Shown here in pieces: positions 5,525 through 63,000 of a DNA stretch of 64,000 nt. This DNA is from Raillietiella orientalis. Lineage: Eukaryota. The stretch spans positions 1 through 64,000 of the forward strand of contig JAYWIR010000130.1 of the NCBI GenBank assembly GCA_036172245.1. The letters are read 5' to 3'. Each line of letters begins with the position of its first letter. The stretch's first letter is position 1. Position numbers and translations under genes: made by a program. The notes beneath the pieces are model-generated. The model saw only the letters and a program-made list of their open reading frames with translations. It did no database searches and had not been told where the DNA came from.

Positions 5525-6873
5525 CTTGGAGAAAACTGTCTTGTTGCGGAGGATGCAGCTTGTTGCTGCGTGTTTTGAGGCAACGGAACGCTGCTTTCGT
5601 TGGCTTTTTTGGACGGACCTGCAGATGCCTTCGTGAGGTTTCCGACTGAAGCCTCCGAAATGGAGAGAGCGCTCAAGGAGGCGATTACCACGCAATTTTC
5701 TTTCACGTGTCCTCCTTTCGCCTTGTCGCAAGGAGCGACCGGTTTTACTGATCCCATTTTGCGAGTAGCGTTTCCGCGATCAGCTACTGGGACAGAAACG
5801 GTACGCGCGGAGCCCTCTCGCCCTTTTTTGAATGGCTTCCCTGCCGCGCGATTGTTCTTTTGGGGCTTCGATGCTAAGGGAGTGAACTTTGAGATCGCGC
5901 TCCTGCCTTCTTTATCTTCGGCCTTTCGCGAGCCTCCCTGTTTTTTTTTTTTTGAGGATGCTGTTTTCTCCTTTGCGCACTCTTTGGCACGCCGGATTCT
6001 AGCAGCCTCCTTTTTTTTCTTTATGTCCAGGCACTTTCTAATTTCGTGCCCGGACTGCTACAGAAGCGGCACTTTGGGGAAGGGCATTCTTTACCCCGAT
6101 GCCCTTCTTTGCCGCATTGCTCGCACGTTCGAGTTTTCCCAACGAACCAAAGGTGAACGACCGTGCCGTTGACCTGTAGCGTGTCAGGAAGCGTGCGGCG
6201 GTTAGGAACGGTTACCCTAAACGCAGCAAATCCTGTGTGTACGCAAGGTATTTTCCTGTAGGAACTCTCCTTCCTCCAATCCGCATGAACAGTTGCGAAT
6301 TTCGCCACCGCGTCCATCAACTCTTTGTCATTGATCTCCAGTTCTACGTCTGAGAGAACAACGACAAAAGACTCGTCCATCGCGGAAGGAAAAACTTGCT
6401 TTCCCCAGATGGACAAAGGAGTGCGGAGGAGCCTCTGCACTAGTGCAGCCTGCTTGCATCGGACCTTCACATAGCCCATTGGTGGAACAGGCATGAGTGC
6501 TATGAGGTCCTCTTCTCGCACTCCCACACGGTAGAGTTCGTCCGCGAACTCCTCCACAGCCTTACCTACCTTACTTACGTTATAGCGGAGAGCAGGCTTG
6601 TAGCCCTGGGCTACATAGGCTTGCATCTCAACCTGGTCGGAAAGAAATCCTTGCACGGCAGCAGAAGCAGTCACGTCCGCAAAGGTCCTGGCCAGTGGCA
6701 CGGGGCTCAACCACGATGTCGCCATCACTTTAGCTGCGAGAAGTTCCTGAACCACAGGCTCGAGGTCTTCCGCGTTGCGTTGTTCACTGCTCATCCTTAG
6801 GGATGTGCAGTAGAATGCACAAACACAACCAAAACGCAGAACCACGGAGCGACACGAAATCACGTCCGACTCG
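5525..6873 (-). mobile_element. Element B: 5' UTR and ORF1 part (ATG ~6794), same family as L; cut by the 3' end of A
   Basis: ORF 6021-6863 QAYVAQGYKPALRY, CEQCGKEGHRGKEC; 5' motif GGACGTG at 6861-6867 (minus). Confidence 0.85.
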
Positions 6874-7935
6874 TATGAGGGCGAACGCTGAAATCGCGTG
6901 CAACCAGATGGGCATTCCGCACGCCTGCTTCAGTCAGCCAGTCGCGCCGGAGGGCAAGGAGAAACTCTATCCTTGCCCTCCTGTTCATCAGGTCCGCGCC
7001 GCTGGGTGCGTACACCTTCGCGACGATCAGATCGATCGAGTCGGGCCACCTGAGAGTCAGCTGGCCGACACGAACGTGAACGTCGAACCGCACGCCCCGA
7101 GCAGCGACCTCGACGGCTGGCCGAAGCAGGTAGGCGACACCTCAACTTTTCGGTCTCCCACATCTGTACCATAGCCGCCCTCAAGAGATCCGTTCGATCT
7201 CTTGCGCTTGTTCTGCGGGAATCACGTGGATCTCCTGCAGCAGCGCAAGGTCGTAGTACTCCAGAAGGGCGGCCATGATTCGTCTCCTGCCAGCGTCTGT
7301 CATGCCGTTCACTTTCCAAACGGCGATGCGCAGACGATGGCGGAAGGAGATTCCCGGCATTACTGCTGGGAAGATTAAGGTGTGGGGGAGCCCGCCTCTT
7401 GCGAAGCGGAAATGATGTCCATGGTGGTTTCGGCCTTCTCAGGCACCTGAGGCACGTGATCGGCCTCCACCCCCTCGATCCCCTCCGTGTCCGCGCGTGG
7501 GAGTCTCTCGGGCGACGGATCACGCTAGTTTCCCACGCTCATGGCACCCACGCTTGCGGAAGCCATCTCTTCCCCCTCGACGGGGGAGACGAGCTTGCTC
7601 GGCTTTGTGGACTTCCGTCCAGCCTTCTAACGCGGTGCCGTGGAAACGGAGGCTGCGCTTCCGGTCTCCAGCTCGGAATCGCAAGTAAGCGATTACTGAG
7701 GGGAAACCGGACCCCTTACGGCCTTCTTGCCAGCCTTGGAGGCGACCGGCTGCAACGAGGCACTCAGCTCCTCCGCGGCTCGCGCGAAGGCTACGTCATC
7801 GATAATGGTGTCGCTGACGGACGCCGCCGCCGGCTCGCTCCCCTCGCTGTTGACAGAGTCAACAGAAGGGTTGTCGTCGGTAGCGGCGAGTTCTTTTTCG
7901 CAGCGGTAGGGAATACGCTCCAGGACAATGCTGCA
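6874..7935 (-). mobile_element. Element C: ORF1 C-terminus plus APE N-terminus fragment (E-like family)
   Basis: ORF1 motifs CSIVLER and DDVAFARAAEEL; TAATG junction at 7358-7362; APE VWKVNG, LQEIH, VYAP, AHLVARDFS. Confidence 0.85.
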
Positions 7936-10764
7936 CGGACGTGTTCTGTGTTGCTCCTCGAGCGTGATTCCTTTTCGTCTTTCTGCGTGTGGTGTGCCCG
8001 AGTGCGTCCACTGGGATGTCCACGGAGCCCCTGCAGCAAAAGTTGGATGTGAAGGCTGCTACGGGCATTAGAGACTGTACTCCAGATGTTTGTTCCGCTT
8101 CTGATTCTTGTGTCTCGCCATCGGCGAGAAGCTTCGCGTCCGTCGTCAAGGCGGCGGCAGTCAACGGAGCACCGCCCGACGGAGCGGAGCTGTAGGCATA
8201 TGCAGCCCATGGCTACAAGTTTGCGTTCTGCTATCCGGTGAGTGCTGAGATCTCCCACGAAGTCGGAGAAAATTCATGGGAGGAGCTTTTGCGCGTCGGG
8301 GTCCGACAGGAAGACCTCCTGGCCGTCATGCCGGTTAACGCGCTCGGACACGGGGAGGTGCACTGCAAAGAGGCATCCCTAGTCCAGCGCCTTCTCCGCA
8401 CCACGCTAAAAATCCGCGGGAAGGAGGTCGTCCCGTCGGCCATTGACCAGTCGTTCGTGGTCCGATTGTCCGCCGTCCAGGTGGACACGCCCGATCGCGT
8501 GCTAGTCGCTGCACTTAGTGCATTCGCCACGGTGCACGAGCTAGGGAGAGCAGACAATCCGAACAAAAGGATTGCATCTCTCCACAGCGGACTTGACATG
8601 GCGCGTGTCACCATGGCGGATAAAAGGCAGATGCATCCGCACTTCCAGGTGGGCGATGCGATCGTCCACCTTAAATTTGCCGTTCAGCGACCGGCTTGCG
8701 GCATTTGCGGTGCAGAGGGCCACCGTCCGTGGACGTGCCCTTCACGCAAATTCCGCTATTGTAAACAGCGCGGCCACTCCATCAAAGAGTGCGCCGAGCT
8801 GAAGAGAAAGCGGCAGGCGAAAAGCTGCCAACAATCTACCCGGTCCGCGCAGAAAAGATCCCCCGTTGTGCGACGGGTGGAATCGGGCGCGAAGGGCGGG
8901 GCATCTTCGAGTGGCGGTCCCGCGAAAAAGGGCGCCGTTTCTTCAAGGAAGCCACCATCACAGACAGCCGCGCAGACACGAAAGTTGCCACGTCTCCCTA
9001 GTGGGAAATCGCGCAATTCTAAGCAGCCTAAGAGTGCGGGCATGCACTCAGTCAAGGCTGCTGTACCGTCCGCGTCCGCTTGCGCGTCCAGCGGAGCACA
9101 CGGGAAACCGTGCGCAATTACCCTCGCAGCTGCCTCTCCACGGCAATCTTTTTCTACGGCGGTGGAGATCACGTCTTCCACGCGGAAGGCACGAGCAGCG
9201 AAGGCAGCAATAGCGCCTCGCGGGACGACGGCATTGACCGCCGTTTCGCCCGCATCGGTTAAGGAGCAGGTGAGGTGCGTAAGGGAGACGGAGCCGTCTC
9301 CCGCCGCAAGCGCGAAACGTGAGCCGGCATCTCCCGCCAAACAATTGAGGGAGGCGTCGGCCTCGCAGGAGGGCATCCCCGACGTGGGCTGGACTCGCGT
9401 CTCCAGGACGCTCACAAAGGGGTAGAAGGTTGACCCTTCAATATTCCCCATCATAAATGTGGGTGGGAGGCAAAAGAGAAGCACGCCGAAGAAGGTGCGT
9501 ACCCAGGTATACACTACGGCTGCGTGCTCTGTCTCTGTCGCTTCGCGCGAGGGGGCGGCTGCGGAAGCCAAAGCTCCGGAGGCTGCGTTGGCGACTTCGA
9601 CGACCCCCGCGCGGGCAGGGCAAGCCTCCACCTACCGAAACAAAAAGAGACTTGCAAAACACCAGTCTCGCGCCAGGCACTCGGAATTCGAGGTGGAGTC
9701 CGAGTGCAAACAAATGGAGCGCGCATCCCGGGGTAAGCCGGTAGCGCGCCGGGCTGAAGTGCGAAAGCACGAGTCTGTTGCCGGTGGCGGTTCCGGCTCC
9801 TGCACGGAAACCGAGGCGATGATCTTCCGCTCCCAGGAGTCAGCTGTGCGCGATGTGATGGCGAACGGGAGCCATTCCGCTTCCCAATCCGCAACCTTAC
9901 TAGCTGACTTCTCGCCGGACGGGGCGAGGAGCTGGCCGTCATGTCCGCAGCAGTACTGCGTGGACTCGCGTCCGCATGCCACTCCAGCTTGGCCTGTTGG
10001 AATGTCAACGGGCTGCGTGATGCTTACAAAAGGCGGAAGGTAGCCAACGCTTTGCACGCGTTCTATCTGGTGCTGCTGCAGGAGATACATAGCATTTCCG
10101 AACGGTAGGCATCGGATCTGTAAGAGCGCGCTGGCGGGACGCTACACTGGAGGCATGGTTCCGCGCACACATGCGGAATCGCGTTCTTCGTCCGAGGGAG
10201 GGTAGCGTAGGCGGTGCGGAACGTTTGTTTTGATGAGGAAGGTCGTGTGGGCCAACTTGTCTTGAAGTGGTCCGTATCGATCGTCCTGGTCGTTAGGAAC
10301 ATCTACGCGCTGAGCGGCGGATGGCATTAGACCCAGCGACTGGCACTGCTGGCTGGCCTGCGCAGCTGCTGGCTCGCTGACTGCAAGCCTGACGTGGCGC
10401 ACTTCCTTGCAGGAGACTTCAATGTCCACCTGCTAACAGAGGAGAGATGCCGCTTGAGGGAGAAGCAACTGGTGAGCGAGGTATGCGCGTCCGTGCGCGT
10501 GCAAAAATTGCTTGCTGGTGAGCCCGGGATGGAGAGATCGCCGGACCATGCGTTCCTCGATAAACACCTGCTCTCACGAGTAGGTCGGAGAAGGCGCCTG
10601 CTGTCCGCGATTTCGGATCATCCGAGACTGGAGTTCCAGCTCCTCCGGCCTGGCAAAGGGCCTCCGATGAATGCTCGGAGGTTGCCGGCCGACTGCCTTA
10701 GCAATTCGGAGGCAACGGAGCATCTTCCCCAATACCTCCGGGGCTTCGCCATCCGTGAACTCGA
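7936..10764 (+). mobile_element. Element D, 5' part: ORF1 (~8016-9956) and APE (~9956-10764); G/I-like family
   Basis: GGACGTG 7937-7943; CGICGAEGHRPWTC, YCKQRGHSIKEC; ACWNVNG, GDFN, PDH, SDH; ends at GFAIREL. Confidence 0.88.
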
Positions 10765-13700
10765 TTTTCACCCGGTTGCGCCAAGACGTTTATTCTTTGG
10801 AATAAAACAAACTTTGGTGGCTGACCAGGTGGTCCGGACACATACTGATATACAAAATTAAGCCTGCTGGGTCACCGGTTCGTATTCCGGCACGGTCGAC
10901 CACGACAGCAGATGGGCCAAGGACAGAACAAAAAATAAAACATAAAAAAAAATATATATAAAATCAGGATCTGGGGGGCACCGGAAGGGATCGCAGTCTG
11001 CTGTGGGGCCGTTACATCCTTTGAAGGATGCCGGCAAGCTGTTTTTAAATTTCTGAATCCAGATGGGTCCATCCTGTCACCGTCCGCATAAATTTGGCTG
11101 CCAACTGGACGGCACCCTTATCGCGAGATCCTCCCGTTGCTTTGCTCAATGCAGCGACGATCCCGCGAAAGCAGCACAGAGCTACTAACGAGGCCGAGGG
11201 CCGAAGAGGGTCGCAAACGAAGATGGATCTGATTGCGTCTCTGGAGTTGCCACAGGGGTGACCGATTGCCGCAACAAAACGGTTTTAAAGGGTCCGAAGA
11301 GCCACACAATCCAAAAGAAGGTAAGTGAAAGACTCTTGTTCTCTATACCTCGCACAATTAGGGCTCACCGCTCCCCAGGTCCAATGGTGTCCGCAAGCGT
11401 TGCAGGGGAGTCCCCAATGCAGCAACAATAGCGCCCACTCCTGCCATTTTAAGGGGAGGGTGGAGGTGTTCATCAGCACAGGGGGCCACTTTAATTGTTC
11501 ACGCGGAACATTTAGCACCTCGATCCAGCGCAAAAGTCTAATAGAAGTAGTAGTCCGGGCCCGGATATCGCAGAGAATTCCCGTTTTCCATTCCCCGATC
11601 TTTTTCTCCGTACCGGAGATTTTGACATAAACATCCCATTTCGCAGCAGTGTTGCCGTTTAAATGTTTCGCGAGCGGAAACAGCATTGCAGCGAGGGGAG
11701 TTTTTCTTTCCCACGCTCGTTTTTAAGGGTTCACCTGCGTTGCTGGTTGCTCCTTGCCCACGTCTGAACCGTTTCCTGCAGCCATGCAGGTCCGTTAACG
11801 GGGCGATAGCACAGCCATCCTGCGTTCTTCCTCATCAGGTAAGCCACTCTCCGTAGCTGCAACCCGCAGTGACCGACTTGGCGGCGCCGACGGAGCGCAA
11901 GGAAGGATGTCAGTCCCACCTTGCCTGTAGCCTGCTCGACGAGGAGACGTGCGGGCTCGCACCAACTGCTATTCAAATATTTCGCCACTAGGGCGAGTAA
12001 CCGAAATTGGAGCTGGAGCTCCAGCCGCTCTAGCGTCAGGAGGCCGAGACCGCCATCCCGACGCTGACCGCTCAAGTCCTCAAGCCGGACTCGGGCACTC
12101 CCATTACCCCACAGGGCAATCCTTAGGAGGTCCTTCGTCCGCTTTTTAGTCTCTGTGGTGGGGGAACAATCAAAAAGCAGGGAACGGAGAAGGGGCGTTG
12201 CGAATGCGTTCCACACCACGGCCCGTTCCGGCAGCAAAAACCTGCGGCCTTGGAACGGGCCGATCGCCGTCTCTACCTTCTGATGGCAGCTGGACCATGC
12301 ATCCGAAGGGAGATAATCACCTACCGGTACACCAAGGTACTTGAAGATCCGTACCGTGAGGATCCCCAAACGGACCTAGTCCGGCTGCCCTGCCCACGCC
12401 GCACCGATTGGCATGACGCACGACTTCGCCCTGTTCACCTCAAGCCCGGTTCCCCGAATTAGCAGGTCGAAAAACTCCTCGACCGCTCATGCCGGGGTGG
12501 ACATAGGGAGCAGCAGGAGTAGGTCGTTCGCATATGCTGACACCGCGGACGTACAAGGATAGTCGCGCGGCAGGTGCGCTAGAGTTTGCTTGTACGCTCT
12601 CAGCACGAACTCGAAATAGGCACTGAAGAGCAAGGGACTCAGGCTGTCTCCCTGCCGTATGCCGCGTCGCACCGGTACGCCGTGCACGGTGTGTCCACTG
12701 AAAAAGATCTGGATCAGCGCGTCGCGCCAGCAGGATCGCAGGTAGGTCAGCAAAGAGACCGGGAAGCCCAAGCGATCGAGGAGCTCCAGGAGGAGCCTCT
12801 GGTCGACACAGTCGAATGCTTTATGCAAATCGACTGCGACTGCGGGGGCTCCCTCCCCCCCCATAACCATCCCGTTTCCTAGCGGCGGACATTCCGGAAG
12901 TCCGGTAGCCCATCGTGACCCTTTCCTGTCGGAGCGCGAAAAAGGTGCTGGCGATGAACAGTTTTGCATCCATGCTCCGCCTGGGAACAGCATATGTCTG
13001 CTCCGGGCAAATAAAGCTTTCCGCTAACCGCCGCAGGCTTTCAGCCCACAACTTCGCCAGCAGCTTGGCTTCCACGTTCATCACGGTAATCAACCCCCAG
13101 TTGCTCATGCTCCGAAGGTCTCCTCCCTTAGGGAAGAGACGCACCTTTGCCGAACGAAACGAGGCGGTGACGTCGCCCGTTTCGCGGATCAGCAAGGTGA
13201 GTTTCTTCACCAGAGGAATGAGCTCTGCCGCAAAACATCGAAAAAATTCCACTGGCAGGCCGTCCTTTCTTGGAGCCTTCCGCCTCTTAAACTTTCCGAT
13301 GGCCGAGATGATCTCGCCCATCGTGAAAGGCTCGACGAGGGTCTTTCTATCTTCCTTCCCGAACGCCGAAGCGCCTTTCGGAATTAGAAGTCGCAAGTCA
13401 TCCCGTTCCGGAGGAGCGCACGATTACAAGAAAGAGTACAATTTTTTTAATAAGCCTTTAACCTGGGCGGGGGCCGAGTGCTCCGAACCCTGGTCGTCCA
13501 GTAAGCTGGCCGACCCGGATTGCCACGCCTGCCACTCGACTCTTGCACATTATTTGGATAGCCTGCGTACGTCTGGTGTTTGCGCGTAACATCGAGATTG
13601 TAAATACCATCTCTCGTTACGCACGCTTTCACCAAACCCGGCAGGCAGGATGTGCATACGGAACTCGTCACAAAAATCCCGGACCGAGCGCTTGAAGCGG

Positions 13701-16246
13701 TTCCAGTCCTGAAGCGTGTGGAAGCTGAAACCTCGTATGAATCCGCGGAGATGCTCCGCGGCTTCCGGAAGTTTCAGCTAGTCCCGCGGCAAGCGCCACG
13801 CAGATAACGGCGTACCTTTATCGCGTGGGCGTACCTCGAGAACGATCCGGTCATGCTCCGACAGTTCCGACGGTAACTTGCCGCGACTGCCCACGCGTGA
13901 GCATAGGTGATAGTCAAGAAACACGTGATCTATGCTGTCGGCCATTTCCATATCACCCGCGAACAAGTTGCGCGTGTACATCTCTGCACACAGCTCTTTC
14001 ACGCGGTCCCGAAGAGTGTCGGACGCACCTGACAGCGTGCGCAGGTTAAAGTCACCTGCGATTAGGTGCGCTTTGCGCACTCCCGCTTCGTCCAGATATT
14101 CCCGCCTCAGGGTTAGGAAGGAATCTCTTCTTGCCTTTGCCCTTAGCGCGTCGCTGCCGCCTGGGGCGTACACGTTGGTAATGAGCAGATCGATGGATTC
14201 GGACCACCTGATGGTCAACTGCCCGACGCGACCGGCACTATCGAACCGTACGCCCTTTGCCGCAGCCTCGACAGCTGGACGAAGCAGGAACGCGACACCG
14301 CAAGATTCAACGGTGCCGCAACGCGACAGCAGCCGTCCACCCGAGTTACGCTCGATCTTCGTTGCTTGATCTGCGGAGATCACGTGGATGTCTTGCAGCA
14401 GCACCAGGTCGAACGATGCCAGTGGGAAGGCCACGTCTCATCTCTTGCCGTCGTCGCTTAGCCCGTTGAGGTTCCAACAGGCAATTCGCAGACGGCGGCA
14501 AGAGGCGATTCCCGGCATTAAGGCTGGGAACCTGGCGTTGCAGCACCTGTCAACGGACAGGTGGGAGGGACGAGTAAGGGGACCGCGGCCATCTCAGGCA
14601 CTTTAGGCACCTGGGGCACAGACTCTACCCTTTCCCTCCCTCCGGGTTCGCAGCGTGGAGTTACCTTTCGAGGAGAGTCCCCGGAGTTCCCCACTTTATT
14701 CTCACGCTCGCTTTCCTCAATTAACTCTACCTTTTCCACGGACGGGATAATTTTGCGGGCAGCCTTGTTCGTGCGATTGGCCTTGGAGCGGGAGGCCGTA
14801 ATGCCGCAGGCTGTGTTTTCCGCCTCTGCATCAGAGTTCGGAACCTTCGACTTCTTGATCGAGGTCGGACGCCTCAAGGCCTTTTTCGCGGATTTAGAGG
14901 GACGCTGCAAGGACGCAGCGAGCTCCTTCGCCGCTCGCTCAAAGGCGACGTCGTCGAGCATGCGTTCGACGACGGAGGCCACCGCAGGTTCGATAGCCTC
15001 GGGCATTAATTTGCCGGAGGGCTCAAAGTCGGCAGCGACGACAGCGTTTTTGCGGGTCTGTTGGACCGCAGGAATGTGCTTGATGACGAAAGAGCAGCGT
15101 TTGATATTTTGGTGACGTGGCAAATTATCGCTGCGTCTATCGACATTGTCTTTTGCTTCCTTGAGGCTTTTCTGCCTCTTGGATTTTACTACCTGCCATC
15201 CAGGTTCCAAGCCGTTTTCCTCGACCTTGTCCGAGTTTTCCAAGATCTCGGAGCTGAGGTTCACCTGGGGCACGATAGTTGTTTTTCGAGCGGCGGCTCT
15301 CTTCAGGGCTGCCTGAACTCGTCTTTTTCTCGCCACGCGGTTCTTCGCATTCCGTGCCGCCGCGACGCGGAATTCATTTTGCGGGCACACTGAAAGAGTG
15401 TGCCCGGGTTGCTTGCATTGCTTGCACTGCAAGTGGGAACACCTTTTTTTTAGGTGACCAGAAGTGCATCAATGCCCGCAGAAATTCGGCTTACCAACAT
15501 ACCAGATGTCAACGGGTTCCCCGTTGACCTCCAGCTTGTTAGGTAGGGAGCAACCCTCGCGGACCGTGATGCGCGCGGAAGCCATACCGCAATTCAGGAG
15601 ATCGTACTCCCAAAACGGAGTCATACTTTTCCACAACGCGTGGACAGTTCCAAATTTAAGTAGTTCCTTTCGGACAGCCTCTTCGGCCATCCGGAAGGTG
15701 ATTCCGAGGAGGTGGATCACGATAGATCTATCCTGCGTGATGGGAAGGAGCCGACGATTCCCCAAAGGTACAGGTGTACGGAGGAGACGCTGGGCAAGAC
15801 TTACTTCTTTGCAAATCACCTCAACGTACTGTCACTTCTCCTGATGGTCATCGCCAAGAGCTCCTCCTGTGGTACTTTCAGGGAGTGCATCGCTTTCGAG
15901 AAAACGCGTGCACTCTCAAAGGAGTAAAGGTTGCCTAACTTTTAGATAAGAGGAGGATTGTACCCCTCCTCCAGGTAGGCTTTCAACTCAGCCGCAGCCG
16001 CTTGCGTTGGCGCCGCAGTCACGGAACTCCAGCTTCTCCCTAGCAAGGGAGTCGCTTCTGTGTGGGCGGTTGCCCCCACATCCATTGATTCAGGAGGCGA
16101 CATAGACGTCGCCCCCTCCTTAACATTAATGGTGGTCCCAGGCATTGCTGCCTAGCCACCACCGAATCCACTGGCACACCAAGAAAAAAAAGAAAAAAAA
16201 CAAAACCACAAACGCTCAAGAGCGAAACAAAAACCCGTCAGCTCTC
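10765..16246 (-). mobile_element. Element E: full-length (~5.5 kb) decayed copy nested antisense in D
   Basis: ORF1 16145-14518, TAATG, ORF2 14518 to ~10990 (GDFN, DLHKAFD, QGDSLSP, YAND); 3' AATAAA plus hairpin 10771-10794; CTCGA at both flanks (10760-10764, 16248-16252). Confidence 0.92.
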
Positions 16247-16500
16247 GCTCGAGGACTGGGACGATCTGAAAAGATCGGTCTGCGAGTTCTGCTGCCGGAT
16301 CCCCTTGCACCTGCATCCACGCGGCTTCGGGAAGGGTGTCGCGAGCAGCAGATCGTTTCTGCAGACGCGTACCTTTTACCGATGCCAGGATGTCCGGCGT
16401 CTGGCGGAGTAGAAGGCCAGGGCCGAGGGTCAGGTTTGGCAGTCTGGAGCGACTTGTCTGCTCGATGACGCTGGCCAGGAATGCTCGGCTGCAGCCGACG
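16247..16500 (+). mobile_element. Element D, continuation of ORF2 after the E insertion
   Basis: Reads LEDWDDLKRSVCEFC...LLDDAGQECSAAADV, continuing D's ...IREL. Confidence 0.85.
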
Positions 16501-16894: not shown

Positions 16895-16907
16895 GGAGGG
16901 GTGGTTG

Positions 16908-45522: not shown

Positions 45523-45597
45523 CTTTTGTGGTGCTCCGCGTTTTTCTCGCGAGTGTTTTCGGTGTTTTCAGCTGTGAGCGGTTGTTCCTGGGCAGAG

Positions 45598-47266: not shown

Positions 47267-47274
47267 ACGCATCA

Positions 47275-51088: not shown

Positions 51089-51096
51089 CAACCCGC

Positions 51097-51618: not shown

Positions 51619-51634
51619 CAACCCGCCGCCTGAG

Positions 51635-53929
51635 AGGGTGGACGTGCTTTTGTGGTGCTCCGCGTTTTTCTCGCGAGTGTTTTCGGGATTTTCAGCTGTG
51701 AGCGGTTGTTCCTGGGCAGAGATGCCCGAGGACGCCGCAAAGACGGCGGAGGGGGGCGAGCGAGCCTCGTCCCCCCAGCCCATGGATGTGGGGGCCATCT
51801 CCCCTACGGAATCGTCCCCCGCCCCGGCGAGGGCTTGGAGCGCGGTGGTGGCGGCGCCTGCGCCGCCCCCCGCAGAGGAACAGCGGGCATACATGGCCGA
51901 CGGGTATAACCCGGCCTTGTTATACAAGGTAGGTGGCCTGTACTCCCCCGCGGTGTTACGATCGTTCGCCGCGGAGTTTAAAAAGTTGAAAGTCCCGGAG
52001 GACGAAGTCCTCGGGCTTTCGGTTAGGAGTGGCGGGCAGCTGGTTGAGCTGAACTGCAAATCTGCAGGGATGGCTCAGCAGCTGCTCCGCCTGCCGGTGA
52101 CCGTGAACGGGAGAAGGATCTTCCCGTTCACGGCGGACAACTCCATCGTGGTGCATTTGACCGGCATAACGATGCGCATGGCACAGAGCGCCGTGCGAGA
52201 ATCGTTAGAGAAGTTCGGGACCGTTCACGCGTTGTGGGCAAAACCCAATGTCCTGGGTTACACCAGGGCATTTAGTGGTTACGCCGCTGCGCGCGTGACG
52301 GTCCGTGCCGAGGGTGGGCTACCCCACAGACTGCAGGTCGGGGAGGAGGAGATCGACCTGTGGTATGTGGGGAAACCCGTATACTGCGGCTTTTGCCAGG
52401 TGTCGGGGCATTTAAAAAAGAAATGCCCCAACATCGTGTGCTTGGGCTGTGGGGAGAAGGGGCACATCAGGCGGATGTGCCCCAACCGAAAAAGGTCCGT
52501 TCCGTCAGGCGCGAGGAAGGAAGAGACGCCGAAGGAAAAGGACCGAAGCCAACAACTGGCAGAATCCCGCCCTGCCGACCAACCCGCTACTCAGGCATCC
52601 ACCAGCGAACAACCAGCTGGAGAAAGCGCCGAGAACGAGGAAGGTTGGCAAAAGGTAGAAAGGAAGAAGCCCCAGAAGAAGGAGGCAAAAAAGATAAACA
52701 AGGCGGTGCCGAAAAAGCAGAAACCGGTCGTCCGCGCTTGTACGGTGAAGATCGAACGCGTCTCGATCGCCAGAGCCGTAAAGAAAGTAACGGTAAAGGC
52801 GATCGATACCGTCGATCCTGAGCCGGTCGTGCCCGCAGTGACGTCACCATCAGCTGACGACAATGCCGTTCCGGCATTGCCAGCGAAGGACGTCTGCGCG
52901 CCGATCGATGAAGCCGCCCCTGTCGCGCCTGCGCAAAGCGTCGGTGCGGAAAGCGAGGAGGCGCCGCGCATAACGGACGCGACCTTCGCGCAGGCCGCGA
53001 AATAGCTGGCAGCCATGTTACGGCAGCCTGCCAAGGCCGAGAAGAAGGCTTTGAGACGACCGGCAACGGTGAAGGGCCCGGAAAATTCCGAGTTCGAAAC
53101 CGAAGCCGGTTGTTCTACTTCCGCAGCCGTGCCGAAGAGGAAGGCTGGCAAGAAGACCGGTTGCCCGAGACGGGTCGCCCCTCCGCAGGTGGAGGAGGCC
53201 ATGTCCTCGGGCACGAAGGAGGAGGCAATGTGCGTCGCGCCACGCGACCCCTCTCCGATCCGTGTCTCGAAAGCCAGCCCCATGGAAGTCGCTGTGGACG
53301 ACGTGCTCCCGTGTGAGCAGCCGACCGTCGTCACGACCGCCAACAAGCCGCCTCCCGCAAGGGAGGAGGCCGCCTCCACCCCTAAATAGACGCACCAGTG
53401 CGTGGGCTCGCCTTCTGCCGCCGCTTGCGCATCACCTGTTGGAATGTCAACGGGTTGCGCGACGGCGGAAAGAGGCGAGATGTAGCCGCCATACTGCGAG
53501 ACTTCGACCTGGTGCTCCTGCAAGAGACGCACGTTCTCCGACCGGGAGATGTCCAGGAAATCGAAAGAATTGCGGGAGGGCGGCTACTGTGGAGGAACGG
53601 AACGGACAACTCCTGCGGAGTGGCCTTTCTGCTAAAGCCAACCGTCGACAACTCACTGCGCAGTGCACGGTTCGACGGGGATGGTCGAGTTGGGCAGCTT
53701 GTGTTCAAGTGGTGAAACTCGATCGACGTCGTAGTCACGAACCTGTACGCTCCGGTGAGCAGCCACAGGGCCGAGGAACGCACTGCGTTTTTCGAAACCT
53801 TGCGGCGAGACTGGTTGACCGAAGCAGGCGTGCGAAGGGCGCACCTCATTGCGGGCGATTTCAATCTCCGCCTGCTGGCAGGTGCGCCCAGCGGACGAGC
53901 ACAGCTGGACGACGAGTTGTGCGCAGCCA
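51635..53929 (+). mobile_element. Element R3: 5' part of a third R copy (ORF1 51722-53389 with a stop at 53003; APE truncated)
   Basis: Near-identical to 45511-47806; breaks after DELCAA. Confidence 0.92.
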
Positions 53930-54505
53930 GCATCCGGTATCCCAAGTGCCGTTTGAAGACGTTTCCAAAGAATTTGGACGGCAGGGCATTCAACTAAGTG
54001 CTGGGGGAGCGACTCCCGCTCCCCACACATAGCACACGCAGGATTTACTCTTCCCCGCGTCCAGTGGAAGCGGCGCGCGTTGCAGGGTAGACCCCAATGC
54101 AGCCACAGAAGCGCCGATTCTCGCCAGTTCAGGGGAAGAAACCTGGAGCCTAGTATAACCGGGGGCCACTTTAGGACATCCAATCGAATGCCGAGCAGCT
54201 CGCCCCATCTTCTTAATTTACGCGGCTGGAGTCTAGGGGTCGTTGCACCTGTCAACTCTCCCATGGTCCAGCAACTCATCGTCTTCTCTCTTCCTGCGAT
54301 ACGGCAGCAGACTTGCCACCTTGGCTTCCGGCTTCCGTGAAGCGCCCTTTGGAGGAAGGCCATCGCCGTAACAAGGGGTGTGCTTTCCGCCCACGTGCAA
54401 CTCGGTGGAAATTCAAGTATTTCACGGAGAGTTCGGCTGGCGTAAAAGCCGACTCGCATGCAGTTCATCTGGTCTTCGCACCTCTGGTTCAGCTTGGCCC
54501 AGGCT
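53930..54505 (-). mobile_element. Fragment S: ORF2 C-terminal piece of the K/N/W group
   Basis: HWGLPCNARRFHWTRG, CAMCGERESLPQHLVEC. Confidence 0.85.
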
Positions 54506-57464
54506 CCGGCATTCCGCGAAGGGCTGAGTAACGATTGGGCATACCACCACGCCCGTCTATACTCTAGGACTCCCGACGTTCGACGCCTGGCGGAGTATAA
54601 AGCTGGGGCTGAGCGACAGACCTGGCAATCCGGGTCGCCCAGCTTGCTGGACGCCCAAGGCCAAGAATGCTCAGCTCCGGTGAGAATAAACCGCATCCTG
54701 CGGGACTATTACTCCTCCTTGTACGCGCGTAGAACAACAGAGCGCGCCGTGGCGCAGCGCTTGCTGCCGCAAGGCGCCCCCGCGCTGCAGGAGGAGCAGG
54801 CACATGAACTCGCGCAGCCTTTCTCCATGGCGGAGATCGTCTCCGCCATCGGAAAGCTCCGAAAGAGAAAAGCACCAGGGGAAGACGGTCTGCCCGCGGA
54901 GTTCTACCAAGGCTTCGTGGCGGAGCTGGCCCCCCTGGTGCATCGGCTATGCATGCTGATCCGAGAACAAGGGGACGTCCCCAAATCGTTCCGGTCAGCT
55001 AGAGTACGTCTCCTGCCGAAAGGAGGAGACAATCGTAACGTAGGAAACTGGCGTCCCATCACAGTAGTGAATGCGGATGCGTAGTTGCTTGCCAAGCTTT
55101 GGGCTGAGCGACTGGGACGGGTGGCGGAATCCGTGGTGAGTCCGGAGCAGACATACGCTGTTCCCGGACGAAGCATGGTGGCAGTTGCAACAAAGCGAAG
55201 ACCAGGGAGGTCAAGAGAATCCTGGATTCTCCTCTGACCAGGGAGGGGACGCCCTTCATGAAAAAGCGGCGCGCGGTACCCTTGCGGTCGCAGTCGATCT
55301 GCGTAAAGCGTTCGATTGCGTCGACCAGGAACTGCTTCTGGAGCTCCTGGAACGCTTCGGATTCCCGGCCGTCTTCCGGGCTCATCTGCGCTCCTGCTGG
55401 CTCTTCACTCTAATAAACATCTCTTTCAGCGGCAGGCACGTGTACGGCGTGCCGGTTCGGCGTGGCATAAGGCAGGGTGACAGTCTGAGCCCCATGCTCT
55501 TCAGCATCTACTTCGAGCTGGTGCTGAGGGCATACAGGGAGACTCTGGCAACCCTGCCAAGCTCGTGTCCCGGCACGCCTGCCGTGTCGGCCTACGCCGA
55601 CGACCTTCTGCTCCTGCTTCCCGGGTCCACCTTGGCGTCGGCGTTCGAAGATTTCTTTGAGTTGCTGCTCCGCGGGACGGGCCTCGAGGTGAAGAGAGAG
55701 AAATCCACAATCGTTCCTACATCACCACTACTTTCAAACAATACGGCGTGGGCCGGACGGCCGGACTGGATCCGCTTAAGGATCCCCACGGGCAGGTGCT
55801 TCAAGTACCTTGGCGTTCTGTTTGGGGACTTCTGCGTTGCAGAAGCCTGGTCCGACCGTCTCCAAAAGGTGGAGTTGGCGATCGGCCCGTTCCGGAACGG
55901 CAAGTTTTACTTGCAGGAGCGGGCCGCGGTGTGGAACGCGTTCGCGGCCCCCCTCCTTCGCCCCTTACTTTTTGTTTGCCCCGCTCCTTTCATCATACAG
56001 AGACGGACGAAAGCCCTCTTGAGGACTGCCCTTTGGGGCACAGCGAGGTCGCGAGTCCGATTGAAATACTTGTGCGCTCCACGCAGGGATGGTGGCTTGG
56101 GCCTCCTTACGTTGGAGCGCATTAACTTCAAACAACAATTCGAAAGTTAGCCCTTGCGGCTAGCTTATGGATGACGCCATTGTGCGATCCGGCACGGCTC
56201 CTCGCCAGAAGAGCGACCGGCTGCGAAGGATTGTCCTCGATCCTCGTGGCCTACCAGCGCAGCCTCTCCAACTCTGGTCCCGATTTGCGCCAGATGGTCG
56301 CCCTGATGAGGGAGAATACCTCGATCTCCTGCATCCCCGCGAACTGCACTGCCTGACTTCAGGAGTCAGCTTCCGCGTGGGCTGAGATCAACGGAACGAG
56401 CGAGGCGGAATACAACTGCCTACGACGAGGACCGTACGCTCGACAGACGCTGCAGGATATTATCAACACGCCCCGGAAGTTTCTGTGGGCTTCTTTCAGC
56501 CTTCATGCCCCCGTTCTGTCCTCCCTGAAAAACAGTAGAAGCAGCAACGAGCTGGCATCGTGGGTAGTGTCCTGCCTCATCCGAGGCAGGAAAAAACCTT
56601 TAAAGGCGTGGACGACTCGGGAGCTCACGGACGCTGCCACCCTGAGCGTCCCGCCTCACGGACTTGTGCGCTGGGGAGAGCTGCTCGCAATACCTCCGGA
56701 GGAGGTGAAGTGGCCCCCAGCGTGTTGGGATTGCGGCACACTTCCGTTGAAGTGGCAGGAGACGGCGTTGCTATTTCTGCACTGGGGACTGTTAAGCAGA
56801 GCACGCCTGTCTCACTGGACACTGGGGAATGTGGATGCCCGCTGTGTCGAGTGCGGAGAAAGAGAAACCTTCCCGCATCTCACCCTCGAGTGTGTCGCCC
56901 TGGATGGACTCTGGAGTCGAATCGCCCCAATCCTCCATCTTCCAGTAGGCGACCCTAAGGATATTTACCGTCGCCTCTTTCTGCGTGACGGCCTGCGCCC
57001 CGCTGCGTCTCTAGCAGTCCTCTGCTGCGTGCGCCGCATTGTGCAAAGGTGGCACGCCAGAAGAAGAGGCCCAAGATGCAGGGACGCCATCCACTGGACG
57101 ACGATCTCTCTAGAGACGGCGACAAGGTGGCGTCTACCTCCAACGGTAAAACCTGAACTTGACTATATCCTCAACAGGATGCGGAGGACCGACCCAGGCG
57201 CTTAGTGATCCCTTCCCTGCCCCCCCCCCTCTCCCCATACAACTGTTTCCCTCCCCGTTATCTCTCTTTTTGTTTGTTTTTGTTTTAGTTTTCCCTTCCC
57301 ATGCGCCTCGGGGATGGACCTAACCGGTGAATGCACCAGCTACCGACACGTCAACCAAGGTGGGAAAACCAAGTGTTTCCCACAATTAACTTTTGAAAGA
57401 CTTTATTATCTAATTTTTGTAGAAAATTAGAATAATAAATGCCCCGGTATATGCGGGTGGCAAA
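54506..57464 (+). mobile_element. Element T: ORF2 from the GFG site to the 3' end
   Basis: DLRKAFD, QGDSLSP, YADD, CVECGERETFPHLTLEC, stop 57205; AATAAA 57434-57439 plus hairpin. Confidence 0.9.
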
Positions 57465-57760
57465 CGTCGGCTGGAGCCGTGTATTCGCGGTCCTGGTCGT
57501 CGAGCAGAACTGTCGCCCCTGACTGCCACACCTGGCGCTCGGCCTTGGCCTTGTACTCGGATAATCGACCAACGTCCGCGTGCCTGGAATAGCAGGGGGC
57601 AGCAGAAAATCTCTTCTGTAGGCTACACCCCCTCCGTAGCCGCGCAGCAGCTGTTGCAAAGGAAACCGACGGCAAAACTGGCGGACCGCTCTTTTCAGTA
57701 CGGCCCTGCGGGCGAGCCACGGAGGTACCGGCGAAGATAGGCCTTTGGAGGAGGCGAACG
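57465..57760 (-). mobile_element. Fragment U: ORF2 linker piece
   Basis: LKRAVRQFCRRFPL...AERQVWQSGATVLLDDQDREYTAPADV. Confidence 0.85.
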
Positions 57761-60060
57761 GCGGACGCAATTGCTGTGCGCTCCGTGGATAGATAGTATT
57801 TTGTCTGGTGTTTCGTTTGTGTTTAGCGGGCGTTCACAGGCAGAAATGCCTGTGAACGCCGAAGTTTCAGGTGAGGAAGGCGGGAAGACCGCATCTCTTA
57901 AGCCAAAGGAGGTGGGATCACGCCCCACCACTACTTCTGAACCCCCGCAACTACGGCGAGGGCCTGGAGCGCGGCGGCTGCGGCGGAAACGCCCGATCTC
58001 GCCCCCTAAATACAATCCTACATCCAGGAGGGCTACCATCCAGCCCTCTTGTACAAGGTAGGAAATTTATATCCCCGTTAAGGGCGCTAAAGTTTGGCAA
58101 TATTATCAAAAAGATGGCCATTGCCGACCATGAAATTGTTTTCGTGTGACTTCGGAGCGGAGTGCAGTTGGCGAAGCACATCTGCAAGGATGCAGCTCTC
58201 ACCCACAAAATGCTCTGCACGCCCGTACAATTTAAGGGCAAAAATTTACTCCCCCACACAATGGACCACTCTATTGTGGTTCATCTTACCGGGACAACAG
58301 TGAGGATGGATGAGAACGGCATCCGCGGTGACCTTAAAAAATTTGCAAGCGTTTTCGCAATGTGGTAAAAGCCCAACACCTTCGGAGTGCACGTAACATC
58401 TAGTGGACGAGTAGGCGCGCGCGTGACGCTGCGAGAAAGCGTGCAGCTTCCCTACTAGTTCCAAATTGGCGACGAGTTCGTCGACGTTTGGTTGTGGGGA
58501 AACCTAAATTCTGTGGCAATTGTAAGAAGTTTGGGCACCTGAAAAACCGGTGCCCGGACGCAGGTTGCCCAACGTGCAGCGCGAAGGGCCACACCAAAGT
58601 AGTGTGCTCGATGAAGGTCGGTCAAACGCCGGAAATATCGCAAAATAAGAAAAGGAAGGCAAAAATAGCATTAAACCCCACAAAAGGGGATCAGCCGTCG
58701 CCTCCGACGGCGCGACAAAGTCGCGAGCCCAGCGTGAGCAGTGACGACCGGAATTTCAAAAAGGCGGCGGCAGAGTTGGCAGCCATGCTCCAGCAACCAC
58801 CCAAGGCCGAGAAGAAGGCCTTGAGGCGTCCGGCTGAGAAAAGAGGACAGGAAACTCCCGAGTCCGAAGCCGAATCCGGCAACGCTCCGGCTGTCGCTCT
58901 CCCGATGCGCAAAGCGGGCCGCAAGGAAGGCAACTCGCGGCGCTCCGCACCTCCACCGTCGGAGGAGGAAATGAGGTCGGACCACGACGACGGGGATTCG
59001 ATGTCTGCGAGGTCTCGGGACTCCTCGCCAAAGGCGGCCCAGGCCAAGCAGCATCCTCCAACCACCACCACAACCACCGAAGGACCACCTCCTTGCAAGG
59101 AACAGCCCGTCGCAATGGACACACAACTCCCGCTTGCTGAACAGCAGGCGGACGACCGTAAGCAATCACCATAAACACATTAACGCGTGGACTCTCTTCC
59201 TGCCGGCGACTGCGCGTAATCTGTTGGAACGTCAACGGGTTGCGCGACGAGGGCAGGAGGAGAGAAGTCGCCGCCATCCTCCGGGACTTCGACCTGGCGC
59301 TTCTGCATGAGACGCACGTGCTCCTTGCTGAGGAGGTCCAGGAAATCGAACGGATCGCAGGCGGGCGGCTTATATACGAGAACGGGAGACCGCACTCGCG
59401 GTGTGGCTTTCATGCTGAAGCCAGCCGTCGTTAATGCGCTGCGCGACGTGCACTTCGACGGGGAAGGTCAAATCGGGCAGTTTGTTGCCAAGTGCTCCGA
59501 CGCGATCGACCTCGTCGTGACCAACGTGTACGCGCCCGGCACGTGCCACAGGCGCGGGGAACGCACTGCGTACTTCGAAGGCCTGAGGCGAGATTGGCTG
59601 GCCGAAGCAGACATGCGAAAGGCGCACCTCATTGCCGGGACTTTAACGTCTGCCTGCTGGCAGGTGCGCCTGACATTCCCGAACAGCTGGTCAACGAGAT
59701 GTGCGCTGTCATGCGCGCGCGCAACTTGTTGACAGAAATACAGAGGATTGCCAGCAGCGTGGACCACGTCTATCTTGAAAAAGACCTGTGCACACGGATC
59801 GAAAAACGAGAGACACTTGGATCTTCGCTGTCGCACCATTCCCGGTTCTTATTAGAAATGCTTCCGCGCGACAAAAGACCGCCATTTAGGCATTGGCGTA
59901 TGCCAAGGGACTGGACGCGCCTGTCAGGAGCGAAAGAACATCATCGCAAATTCCTGCGAGGCGTTACCTTGAGAATCTCGCGGATTGGAACCTATTTAAG
60001 GACTGGGTCCGGTAGTTCTGTGAGCAGTTCCCTATGCAAGGACTGCCTTGGGGATTTGGC
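57761..60060 (+). mobile_element. Element V: 5' UTR, ORF1 (57846-59174, internally deleted) and APE
   Basis: GGACGCA 57763-57769; CGNCKKFGHLKNRC; ICWNVNG; ends QFPMQGLPWGFG. Confidence 0.88.
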
Positions 60061-63000
60061 GTTGCCACCCGGGTACGCCCGGGGCGTTTATTTATAAAAA
60101 AACTCTACAATTGCGGTACCAGGCCCCGCTCACGGCCTTATGCACGGGACCTACCGGGACGCCGGGACGCAGCCCGGCGTGGCACTCCCCGGCAGAGAAA
60201 GGGGATGGTAAAAACAAAAATAAAAACAAAAGGCAAACCAACAAATGAGGTTGGGAGGCAGCGAAGGGATCACTGTTCGCTGAGAGGAGGGCCCAACCGT
60301 TGAAGGAAGCCCTCGAGGTCCATCCGTATATTCCCCAGTTGGGGCCATCCAGAAGCTCTCCGCAAGAAGCGTTGGGCATATCGGATGACATCCCTCGCGT
60401 GTTGACCCACTCCTTCCTTGTTGGTGTCGCTCCATGCCGTCACGATGCCTCGGACGCAGCACAAGGCTGCAAGGGCTGCGGCTGGCTGCAGGGCGTCCTT
60501 CACGAAGAGGGGCCGAAGAACGTCTCTAGGGGAACTGCCTGTAGGGAGACCGAGGATCGTCCCAAACCGTTCCCAAAGGGGACGAAGGGCAGCACAGTCC
60601 ACAATAAGGTGGGAGAGCGATTCTCGCTCTCCGCACCTGACACACGCAGGATCCACAACTCCTCTTGTCCAGTGAGAGCGGCGTGCGTTGCAGGGTAAAC
60701 CCCAATGAAACAACAGAAACGCCGACTGTTTCCACTTAAGGGGCAGGATCCTGGATTCCTGAAGAAGCGGGGGCCACTTCAGCACATCCATAGGGATGGC
60801 CAGCAGCTCGCCCCATCTTCTTAGTCCTCGCAGCTTGACGCTCGGTGTAGTGGCGTCGGCCAGTTCTCCTGTTGTCCAGCCCCTGATCAACTTCTCGCGT
60901 CCCTCGATGCAGCAGGAGACTTGCCACCTTAGCGTTCGGCTGCTGTGAAGTGCCCTCCACAGGAAGGGAAGCGCCGTAGCTAGGCAGGTCGTCTCTGCCC
61001 ACGTGCATCTTGCTAAACTCTTCAGGAGATTCCGCAGCGTGCAGCGGGCGTAGGGGCTGCATCGGAGACGATTCCACGTTTCGTGGCTCCTCTGGTTAAC
61101 CGCTTCCCACGTTCCAATATTCTCCTCCAGCCAGGCGGGGCAGTTGGCGGGGCAGCAAACCATCCAGCTGTTCTCCTTGGCCAATGTTGCCATGCGACCG
61201 AGCATTAGGCCGCATGTTCGCATCTTCCGGCCACGGCTCAGAAGAAAAGACGCGAGTCCATCGCACCGGGAAACACGGCTGGCCAGGAGGCGGGCCGGAG
61301 TACACCAAGGGGTGCTCCACATCTTCGCTGCGATGGCGAAGGTTCGCCACCGCAGCTGCTTCTCCACGCGCTCCAGCGTCAGGAGGCCAAGACCGCCGTC
61401 CCGACACGGAGCGCACAAGTCCTTCAGAGGGACTCGGGGCCTCCCCTTGCCCCAAAGGGCAATACGGAGGAGGTCCTTTGTCCTCTTCTTCGATTCCACA
61501 GTGGAAGGGCAAACAAAAAGCCAGAAGCGGAGGATAAGGGCCGCGAAGGCGTTCCAAACCGCGGCCCGTTCCGGCAAGTGAAACTTGCCTTCCAGGAACG
61601 GGCCGATCGCCGTCTCGACTTTTTGGAGGCAGATGGACCACGCTTCCGCAGAAGAGTAGTCCCCCAACGGCACACCAAGGGTCTTGAAGCACCTCGCCGT
61701 GGAGATCCCTAGACGGACCCAGTCCTGCTGCCCTGCCCACGCCGCACCTATTGGCACAACCGACGTCTTCGCCCTGTTAACCTGCAGTCCGGTCCCGCGC
61801 CTGAGCAGATCGAAGAAGTCTCCGACCGCCTTTGCCGGGGTAGACATTGGCAACAAGAGCAGACGATCGTCGGCGTACGCTGCTACGGCGAACGTGCGGA
61901 GGCACGAGCTCGGCAAGGGGGCCAAAGTCACTCTGTACGCTCTCAGCACCAACTCAATGTAGGTGCTGAAGAGCAGGAGGCTGAGGCTATCGCCCTGCCT
62001 TATGCCCCGCCGCACCGGCACGCCATACACCTTGTGGCCGCTGAAAGAGACGGTAATCATCGCATTCCGCCAGCAAGAGCGCAGGTAGGAAATCAGGGAG
62101 GTTAGAAGCCCAAGCGACCCACGAGCTTCAAGAGAAGTTTCTGGTCAACACAGTCGAATGCCTTATGGAGGTCGACTGCGATCGCTAAGGCCCCCTTCCC
62201 CGCATGAGGGTCCTTACCCCTTCCCACTGGCGGCCCCAATGTGGGGTTGCCGACTTTTCCTATCCCTTTCTTCTCTCTTCTCTGCAGGTGCACCCATGTG
62301 CTTCAGAAGAAGAGGTTGGAATTCATACTTAGCCCGGCAACAGCATAACTCTGCTCCGGGCTAATTATGGATTCTGCCACCTGCCCCAGACGCGAAGCCC
62401 ATAGCCCTGCTATCAACTTGGCGTCCGTATTCACGATCGTGATCGGACGCCAGTTCTTTAAATCCCTGAGGTCTACCCCTTTCGGAAGGAGCCTCACTCT
62501 GGCTGACCGAAACGAGGCGGGAACATCGCCTTCGTCTCGGATCAGCCTGATCAACTTAAGCAGCAGGGGTGCCAACTCTTCCGCGAAGCTCTGAAAGAAC
62601 TCCGCGGGCAAGCCGTCTTCCCCTGGAGCTTTACGCCTTTAGAGCCTTTGGATACCGGCGAGAATTTCGCCGGTGGTAAAAGGCTAGTCGAGTCTTTCCA
62701 TCTCCTCCTCCCCTATTGGCAGGGCGCCATCCGGAAGCAAGCGCCGAGAAGCGTCTCGATCTGAGGGCTCCCTGGCGTAGAGAGAGGAATAAAAACTCCG
62801 CACGAGATGCCGTACCTACGCCGGGGACGAACATTCCCTGCTCTGGTCGTCCAGCAAGCTGGCCGACCCGGATTGCCAGGCTTGGCGTTTGGCCCCAACG
62901 CGGTACTCGGCCATGCGACGGACATTAGGTGTTCTCTCGTAACTACGAGCCTGTAAATAGGCCCAATGTTTGCAAGGACCCTCGCCGAAACAGGGGAGCA

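Follow-up and report, generated by a model that had tools for sequence, protein, structure and literature searches.

How does a stretch of genome come to consist of long interspersed nuclear elements (LINEs) nested in one another, and what determines where in each other such elements land? This question is raised by 64,000 nucleotides of Raillietiella orientalis (GenBank assembly GCA_036172245.1, contig JAYWIR010000130.1, positions 1 to 64,000 of the forward strand), referred to here as the window. L1-like LINE fragments on both strands tile almost the whole of this 64-kb window, and a tblastn map revealed no other content. The longest open frames served as queries for the map: one was a first open reading frame (ORF1) that has a CCHC knuckle, and the other covered 959 codons of a second (ORF2), which is ~1,210 codons long and includes an apurinic/apyrimidinic-type endonuclease (APE) and a reverse transcriptase (RT). 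By reading every junction we parsed the window into elements with 23 letters, A to W, plus the copies R1-R3 (Table 1). We consider it likely that the array was built by lineage-specific, sequence-specific nesting. A first-pass annotation of this DNA had proposed that several related lineages each have their own precise target in other LINE copies, and the target-site duplications and tandem re-insertions described below support that proposal. All counts of junctions and events come from this one window, and codon numbers refer to the ORF2 at 47194-50070.

Insertion at exact positions within LINE coding sequence

Where two or more inserts shared a junction, the positions coincided to the nucleotide and each site had been entered in a single orientation. 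The most heavily used site, at the GFG codons (ORF2 codon ~320), holds the antisense inserts N, W and S and a K-J tandem. The tail of N adjoins host M right after GGATTTAAGG, with M continuing from GGATTTTAAG (GGATTT..), and the tail of W adjoins host V right after GGATTTGGCG. The 5'-truncated S stops where host T starts, at GGCATTCCG, and T continues GGCATT... Behind the tail of K comes CGCCAAACCC (25670-25679), the reverse complement of the GFG 10 bp, and J begins immediately after it with its 5' end; the presence of CGCCAAACCC between the two indicated a tandem double insertion at this site. The first-pass annotation had placed K, N, S and W here in antisense, a claim that held to the nucleotide and to which J is added in tandem with K.

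Two further sites are shared by pairs of inserts. At the ADV site (codon ~380, antisense), F lies in host D' and T in host U, and both tails are followed by ACGTCGGCTG(C/G)AGCC; in the full flanks, ACGTCGGCTGCAGCC and ACGTCGGCTGGAGCC, 10 nt are identical and 14 of the 16 nt shown match. At the GDFN site (codon ~182, sense), the tail of L is followed by ACTTTAAT, and the 5' ends of B and L come after GATTTCAGC and GAATTCAAT, respectively. Both sites had been predicted, ADV for antisense F and T and GDFN for sense B and L, and both were confirmed, the former by the common flank after the two tails and the latter by junctions at the GDFN codons.

The R copies occupy a site in ORF1. Full-length R1 comes after Q's ...CAACCCGCCGC; this 11-mer recurs after R1 and after the 5'-truncated R2, and R3 then begins with a full 5' end. 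All three occurrences of AACCCGCCGC in the window are at the R1-R3 junctions, in agreement with the earlier assignment of these copies to CAACCCGCCGC in ORF1. A 485-nt contig of run X1, which matches 51591-52075 apart from 21 differences, runs from an R tail through the 11-mer into an R 5' end, and it seems that the same sample has at least one more, diverged copy of the R-R tandem junction. A contig joint of 51103 to 58704 places another R tail and 11-mer beside a V-like ORF1, but at 43 nt its length is insufficient for interpretation. From runs X2 and X3, the contigs match no more than an A-rich stretch near 60206-60245.

At a fifth site, the ELD codons (codon 293), D carries E in antisense; the CTCGA duplication is clean, and the flanks on both sides are family-consistent. 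V was considered as a second ELD insert and rejected because U runs on upstream of that point, so that ELD represents one event. We also observed that U (57706-57740) is without ~14-19 nt exactly where D/D' (10721-10762 and 16245-16265) carries E, with homology on both sides; this deletion may be a coincidence or a repair scar. The sixth candidate, a site named CARCC that the first-pass annotation had assigned to G and I, was rejected. G is in sense in the C-terminal region of F and I is antisense at codon 87 of J; both are followed by ACA(A/G)CC, which amounts to a 5-nt resemblance at two host positions in opposite orientations.

The target-site duplications were 5 to 11 bp in length: CTCGA (E), GGATTT(T)AAG (N), CGCCAAACCC (K/J) and CAACCCGCCGC (R). 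In each lineage, 2-4 T precede the start of the cDNA, whose nucleotide and strand are fixed, and the second-strand cut is 5-11 bp off.

Independence of the shared junctions

Coincidence by chance was assessed with a rough Poisson model (+/-3 nt, same strand, 5.6 kb x 2 strands), which assumes independent events. The 10 events with a visible 3' junction formed 2 coincident pairs versus 0.03 expected (P = 4e-4), and after addition of the events with a 5' junction the six GFG pairs alone gave P = 2e-11.

Shared junctions would also arise if one ancestral insertion per site had been copied by segmental duplication, or by satellite-like unequal exchange, of units of host plus insert. Alignments do cross the junctions, M-up+N with V+W over 4458 bp and D'+F with U+T over 631 bp at 73.5%; the part of K downstream of L and M' are 86% identical with near-neutral differences; and ZeppL arrays in Chlamydomonas are described, in the passages of one report that we cite, as changing by unequal exchange (PMC9977147). 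Copying of junctions as composites of host and insert was tested by comparing host divergence with insert divergence (INDEPENDENCE). For M-up+N against V+W in 200-nt windows, identity was 72, 62, 67 and 61% in the hosts, 72% in the junction window and, in the inserts, 78-91%. Between hosts M and V the difference is ~35%, with codon-position mismatches of 0.33/0.21/0.44, and this third-position excess indicated that they had diverged under selection and are different lineages. The inserts N and W differ by ~15% (0.15/0.13/0.18), and their near-neutral differences indicated one family that had decayed in place. A host divergence about twice that of the inserts, with a sharp step at the junction, argues against copying of the composite.

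The remaining GFG inserts pointed the same way. Distances of 24-27%, with a third-position excess, separated K from N and W, S from K, N and W, and J from N, as is the case for separate selected lineages; the 5' ends are unlike as well (full length in N and J, truncated in S), and so are the flanks. Together, these comparisons indicated that the GFG site had been hit at least four times independently. At GDFN, the inserts B and L have diverged under selection (0.31/0.21/0.54) and the hosts belong to different families, C being E-like, K' R-like and K a member of clade I (see below), which likewise indicated that the shared junctions were independent events.

For ADV the comparison was closer. 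The divergences of hosts D' and U (0.30, 72/242) and of inserts F and T (0.21, 74/360) are fairly similar, as copying would have it, with a two-proportion p of ~0.01. On the other side, D carries E and U is without it, and a 450-nt contig of run X1 represents uninterrupted host across ADV, with 94% identity to U on one side and likewise 94% to P on the other. We regard the two ADV events as probably independent. In the R array, the 5'-truncated R2 has a full 5' end on either side of it and the 11-bp spacers are identical, which indicated serial insertion into a regenerated target and not unequal exchange. The first-pass annotation had named inheritance of the junctions by segmental duplication as the way in which its proposal could fail; this was checked and was ruled out for GFG and GDFN, with the independence of ADV probable only. 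As an account of the array as a whole, we think that copying of ancestral insertions is unlikely.

Target choice and element lineage

Quick maximum-likelihood trees, for which the only support values came from the Shimodaira-Hasegawa-like approximate likelihood ratio test, were made for ORF1 and for the APE, RT and C-terminal parts of ORF2; sequences that filled under 30-50% of the columns were left out. Three clades were recovered: clade I (K, M, N, W, S and J), clade II (G, I, L, P, D and B) and clade III (R and T). Apart from these are two further lineages, one of E, C and O and one of Q and V. The five GFG inserts (J, K, N, S and W) all belong to clade I, and the GDFN inserts B and L group together in the ORF1 tree. 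T groups with R; F, which consists of 3' untranslated region (UTR) and a short coding tail, was outside the trees and is tied to T by their common 3' UTR end. The trees indicated that target choice follows clade.

The hosts come both from other clades and from the insert's own. M, a clade I element by ORF1 and APE, was hit by its clade I sister N, which indicated cross- and self-targeting that is not simply directed at competitors. The earlier suggestions that sister families have divided up motifs and that the insertions serve in disabling competitors were unsupported; every copy in the window is already defective and none is coding-competent.

Common features of the element ends

The window contains 12 visible element 3' ends, 10 of which have the same tail: AATAAA comes first, then a conserved block rich in GC (GCCCCGG...CCGGGTG), then two bases that vary and finally 2-4 A, so that it closes in GGGTGnnAA(A) with no A-tract after. 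The tail of F is a degraded copy of this common tail, and A has its own version, AATAAA plus a hairpin. The AATAAA..CCGG pattern occurred 9 times versus 1.1 expected. A consensus fold of the tails had only 4 pairs. Individual folding of 11 stretches gave -3.7 to -13.2 kcal/mol, a range from which the fold of F, which took the wrong stretch, was excluded. We interpret the tail as a conserved sequence block in which a hairpin can be drawn but is unproven. Inspection by eye revealed no obvious complementarity between tail and target.

Many of the insertions are full length. Full-length 5' ends of different lineages share a motif of the type GGACGTG..TTTT..CGCTC within their first ~40 nt; the 5' ends concerned are at 16244(-), 25669(-), 34569(-), 41765(-), 45506(+), 51630(+), ~6850(-) and ~57775(+). 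The shared motif may be an internal promoter or a 5'-end signal.

Affinities of the elements

The GC content ranges from 50 to 64% across the window, and comparison of the window with itself produced many copies at 65-97% identity. Searches of the 64 kb identified no Rfam families or tRNAs and a single small tandem repeat. In R1, ORF2 matched Pfam Exo_endo_phos at residues 42-247 (51.8 bits, cut-off 24.5) and RVT_1 at residues 488-759 (80.9 bits, cut-off 29.6), giving the L1-superfamily arrangement of an APE-type endonuclease N-terminal to the RT, and ORF1 matched zf-CCHC (22.4 bits versus a cut-off of 20.8), the nucleic-acid-binding module of ORF1 in L1 elements of plant and algal type. The best solved relative was human LINE-1 ORF2p (E 2.3e-46), with the next family, R2 and RT-like proteins, at E 1.9e-15. 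The elements are accordingly assignable by their encoded domains to the L1 superfamily, from whose usual features they depart only in the tail, which is GGGTGnnAA(A) with 2-4 A and not a poly(A) or simple repeat.

Within that superfamily the group appears isolated in public protein space. The nearest protein was a metagenome fragment of 65% identity, uninformative because it starts at codon 364, and all others were at 36% or below. The 36% protein (as listed; ~31% per blastp segment) is a turtle tandem-repeat gene model and was rejected as a close relative. An Atlas search returned generic APE-RT clusters only. A metagenome scan with the tail pattern found 2 loci, neither similar to the window proteins or DNA, and both were taken as chance matches.

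Observations that weigh against site-specific nesting

Several observations weigh against nesting at lineage-specific sites. The events per site are few and all from one window (GFG 4-5, ADV 2, GDFN 2-3, ELD 1 and the R site one locus). The GFG target sequences differ (GGATTTGGCG, GGGTTTGGCG, GGATTTAAG and GGCATTCCGCG), and look-alike sites are mostly empty: 10 of 14 rows for GFG, 11 of 14 for GDFN and 11 of 13 for ADV, including the identical cores GATTTCAAT in N, R1, R3 and W and GGATTTGGGG in K. The p of ~0.01 does not make the ADV pair decisively independent, and the contig that supports its independence is the product of a single short-read assembly. The tail hairpin showed no gain in stability over shuffled sequence, with all z-scores above -1.5 in 11 folds. 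Finally, the two flanks of L, and the flank downstream of N, are not as expected of simple insertion into one host.

The variable targets and the many empty sites would be expected if insertion were aimed at the array as a region, through tethering to chromatin or a centromere, and the shared positions were nicking hot spots of a low-specificity endonuclease or of DNA structure. The LINE-only content of the whole window is also consistent with this, as are the short A run that precedes all cDNA starts and the case of G and I, which share only a 5-6 nt flank at different host positions. However, each site has been used by one clade and in one orientation, the F and T flanks agree as described above, AACCCGCCGC is at an R junction in every one of its window occurrences, and nucleotide-exact coincidence is not expected of a low-specificity nuclease. 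We believe regional targeting of this kind to be distinctly improbable, and prefer insertion at lineage-specific sequences.

The mismatched flanks bear on another statement of the first-pass annotation, that hosts resume across E, L and N with short duplications. This was correct for E, and a yardstick test across E in D detected no family switch. For L it was not: upstream, K' (34570-34813) is R-like, with 85% identity to R1, 69% or less to the N/W clade and a fragmentary match to M, whereas K beside L (28700-29019) is of the N/W clade, with 77% identity to W and 67% to R1. For N the outcome was mixed. Its flanks (37300-37561 versus 41766-42030) switch from 68% identity to K in M-up to 85% in M' within 30 nt of the junction, and nevertheless share the unusual duplication GGATTT(T)AAG.

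Our best guess is that the L and N switches are due to gene conversion or unequal exchange, with tracts that stopped at the heterology of the insert. It is also possible that they come from recombinant families or from mis-joins of repeats in the assembly, and a family switch exactly at the insert boundaries is what the mis-joining of similar inserts in different hosts would produce. The contigs of runs X1-X3, which are the read evidence, are short; 52 of 425 are at least 99% identical, and among the listed pieces none spans a whole insert. The duplication common to both flanks of N speaks against mis-joining there. Moreover, each single junction fits within one read and recurs in copies of diverged sequence, for which reason the coincidence of sites cannot be a product of mis-joins, and the mismatched flanks of L and N leave the single junctions unaffected. 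That part of the pattern, chiefly the L and N flanks, is an assembly artefact we consider very improbable.

A proposed process

Based on these observations, we propose that the array is a LINE-only nest which would have grown by target-primed reverse transcription, a process that the 5-11 bp duplications fit. At least four lineages of one L1-superfamily group would each carry a heritable, sequence-specific site inside the coding sequence of related LINEs. The candidate targets are the GFG codons for clade I (J, K, N, S and W; antisense, 10-bp duplication); ...AGCCGACGT (ADV) for the F/T family, antisense; the GDFN catalytic motif of the endonuclease for the B/L lineage, in sense with 8-9 bp; GAACTCGA (ELD) for E, antisense with 5 bp; and CAACCCGCCGC in the ORF1 of the Q/V family for the R family, in sense with 11 bp. 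Since the duplication regenerates the target, the same site can be hit again, which results in head-to-tail tandems such as R1-R2-R3 and K-J. The site would presumably be read by the element's own APE endonuclease, possibly together with the endonuclease-RT linker or ORF1, or else by some other DNA-binding part that the element encodes, and by analogy with stringent-type LINEs the conserved 3' block would act as the recognition signal for RT. Later unequal exchange or gene conversion, bounded by inserts, probably scrambled some flanks.

We speculate further, with slightly less than even confidence, that this is a community of sibling LINEs whose endonucleases have distinct, heritable specificities of ~10 bp for LINE coding motifs, GDFN included. 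Dead copies would serve as landing pads, and the guild would extend a gene-free domain, perhaps a centromere-type repeat. On this view the Zepp principle (see below) would take a multi-species, "ecosystem" form, with target switching visible on the tree.

Should the pattern extend across the genome, it would merit description; a single window makes it a strong lead and not yet a result. Programmable, RNA-templated insertion of genes has its natural models in target-specific LINEs, as has the way in which mobile DNA finds harmless niches. Closely related APE-type elements with different targets, whose sites, orientations and lengths of duplication can be read exactly in the sequence, offer a natural series for mapping specificity residues in the endonuclease or linker. 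The process would also provide a concrete mechanism for the growth and the gene-free state of LINE-only domains, such as Zepp-type putative centromeres, and would mean that transposable element (TE) lineages can use each other's remains as habitat.

Organization of the window

The complete parse is given in Table 1. A is the only member of its family in the window and has a 27-bp tandem repeat at 231-323. G and I form a 1.48-kb inverted repeat (16903-18383 / 22095-23576, 90% identical) around the 570-bp H, and the 5' junctions of both touch H, at codons 432 and 243. The O scrap is wedged between P and M', with M' cut before its 3' end. Junctions O/P, P/Q and R3/S each occur once, and their appearance is that of deletions or rearrangements and not of targeted insertions. 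The R copies are the youngest in the window; R1 nevertheless has several frameshifts, both in ORF1 when compared with R3 and, near 47200 and 50075, in ORF2.

Table 1. Elements of the 64-kb window in order of position, with the sequences at which they end.
Element	Position	Strand	Description
A	1..5527	+	Distant, AT-richer APE-RT LINE, 28-30% amino acid identity to other elements; 3' end with own AATAAA and small hairpin, antisense inside B
B	5528..6866	-	5' UTR and ORF1, clade II; 3' part removed by A; 5' end adjoins host C at GDFN codons, sense
C	6867..7396	-	Host fragment, ORF2 codons 17-185; terminates at GDFN (GATTTCAGC)
D	8001..10762	+	Host, ORF1 and ORF2 codons 26-294; interrupted by E at ELD codons; 5' limit uncertain
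E	10763..16244	-	Full-length insert (5.5 kb), antisense in D; CTCGA target-site duplication
D'	16245..16501	+	D continues, codons 293-381, to GCAGCCGACGT = ADV site
F	16502..16907	-	T-family 3' end, degraded tail, antisense at ADV of D'; cut by G
G	16908..21531	-	Clade II; 5' end adjoins H; tail then ACAACCACC, sense, within C-terminal coding region of F
H	21532..22101	-	ORF2 fragment, codons 243-432
I	22094..23571	+	G-family copy, 5'-truncated, 90% identity; tail then ACAGCCGAC, antisense in J at codon 87
J	23572..25669	-	Clade I: 5' UTR, ORF1, ORF2 codons 16-87; 5' end preceded by CGCCAAACCC, GFG-type duplication
K	25670..29019	-	Clade I, ORF2 codon 181 through 3' end; begins at GDFN, adjoining L tail
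L	29020..34569	-	Full-length clade II insert (5.5 kb), sense, GDFN codons at both ends
K'	34570..34813	-	ORF2 codons 105-183, terminates in GAATTCAAT; R-like, not K-like
M-up	34826..37561	+	Host 5' UTR, ORF1, ORF2 codons 13-320; terminates in GGATTTAAGG (GFG)
N	37562..41765	-	Clade I insert, internal deletion, antisense at GFG; GGATTT(T)AAG duplication
M'	41766..44068	+	Host continues from GGATTTTAAG, codon 319 onwards
O	44069-44250	-	182-bp ORF1 scrap, 90% identical to E ORF1
P	44251-44858	-	Clade II ORF2 codons 339-551; ADV-like site CCAGCTGACGTG unoccupied
Q	44859..45505	+	ORF1 3' part, V family (85% identity), terminates in CAACCCGCCGC; hosts R array
R array	45506..53931	+	Copies 97.5% identical; R1 45506-51088 full length; R2 51100-51618 5'-truncated; R3 51630 to ~53931
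S	53932..54505	-	Clade I fragment, 5'-truncated; 5' end adjoins T at first G of GFG codons
T	54506..57464	+	Clade III, codon 318 to tail; hosts S at GFG; antisense at ADV of U
U	57465..57760	-	Clade II-like host fragment, codons ~280-381, terminates in CCAGCCGACGT (ADV); upstream limit approximate
V	57765..60061	+	5' UTR, ORF1, ORF2 codons 4-323, terminates in GGATTTGGCG (GFG); 5' limit approximate
W	60062..64000	-	Clade I insert, antisense at GFG of V; runs past window end

Comparison with known systems

The R1 and R2 elements of 28S rDNA are different lineages that each occupy a fixed site in a multicopy host, have no long poly(A) and include tandem or re-inserted copies. Their host is a cellular gene and the endonuclease of R2 is restriction-like, whereas the multicopy host in the window is the LINE population itself.

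The window, being wholly LINE-in-LINE, resembles the nested clusters of the L1-type LINEs Zepp in Chlorella and Coccomyxa and ZeppL in Chlamydomonas. These are LINE-only clusters formed by nested insertion, with frequent tandem 3' parts, and they are GC-richer than their surroundings and candidate centromeres, according to the portions of the reports that we cite (PMC8226300; PMC3446292). The same portions describe Zepp as one or very few families per genome that target their own copies, and give no codon-level sites. There are two differences. The tail of Zepp, like that of L1-1_CR, is (A)n (PMC3747384 Table 3, the part of that source used here), and the window elements end in a specific GC-rich block and 2-4 A. 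In addition, at least four lineages in the window have different exact targets in each other, a comparison that is by description only and as far as those portions extend.

Sequence-specific insertion is shared with Tx1L and Tx2L of Xenopus, which are L1-superfamily LINEs of APE type described in the cited passages as strictly sequence-specific for the DNA transposons Tx1D and Tx2D (PMC6719617; PMC3747384). The window elements, for which the placement reached is the L1 superfamily only, have the coding motifs of sibling LINEs as their targets; those of the Tx1 group, in the same passages, are a DNA transposon, RNA genes and microsatellites, with one LINE per target. A preference for landing inside other TEs, and TE-in-TE nesting as a niche, have been described for Tourist miniature inverted-repeat transposable elements and for maize TE families in the passages cited from PMC6719617. 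Those are DNA transposons or long terminal repeat elements with a regional or short-motif preference, and not LINEs that target one another at exact codons.

In full-text literature, a scope outside which lie most subscription journals, Repbase and Dfam, we found no multi-family LINE-in-LINE network with codon-exact mutual targets. In the cases that are known, a single element goes with a single multicopy target, either cellular or foreign. Nested Zepp arrays and the targeting of Tx1D by Tx1 are known; what we judge to be new in the window is that several lineages each have their own coding-motif target in their siblings.

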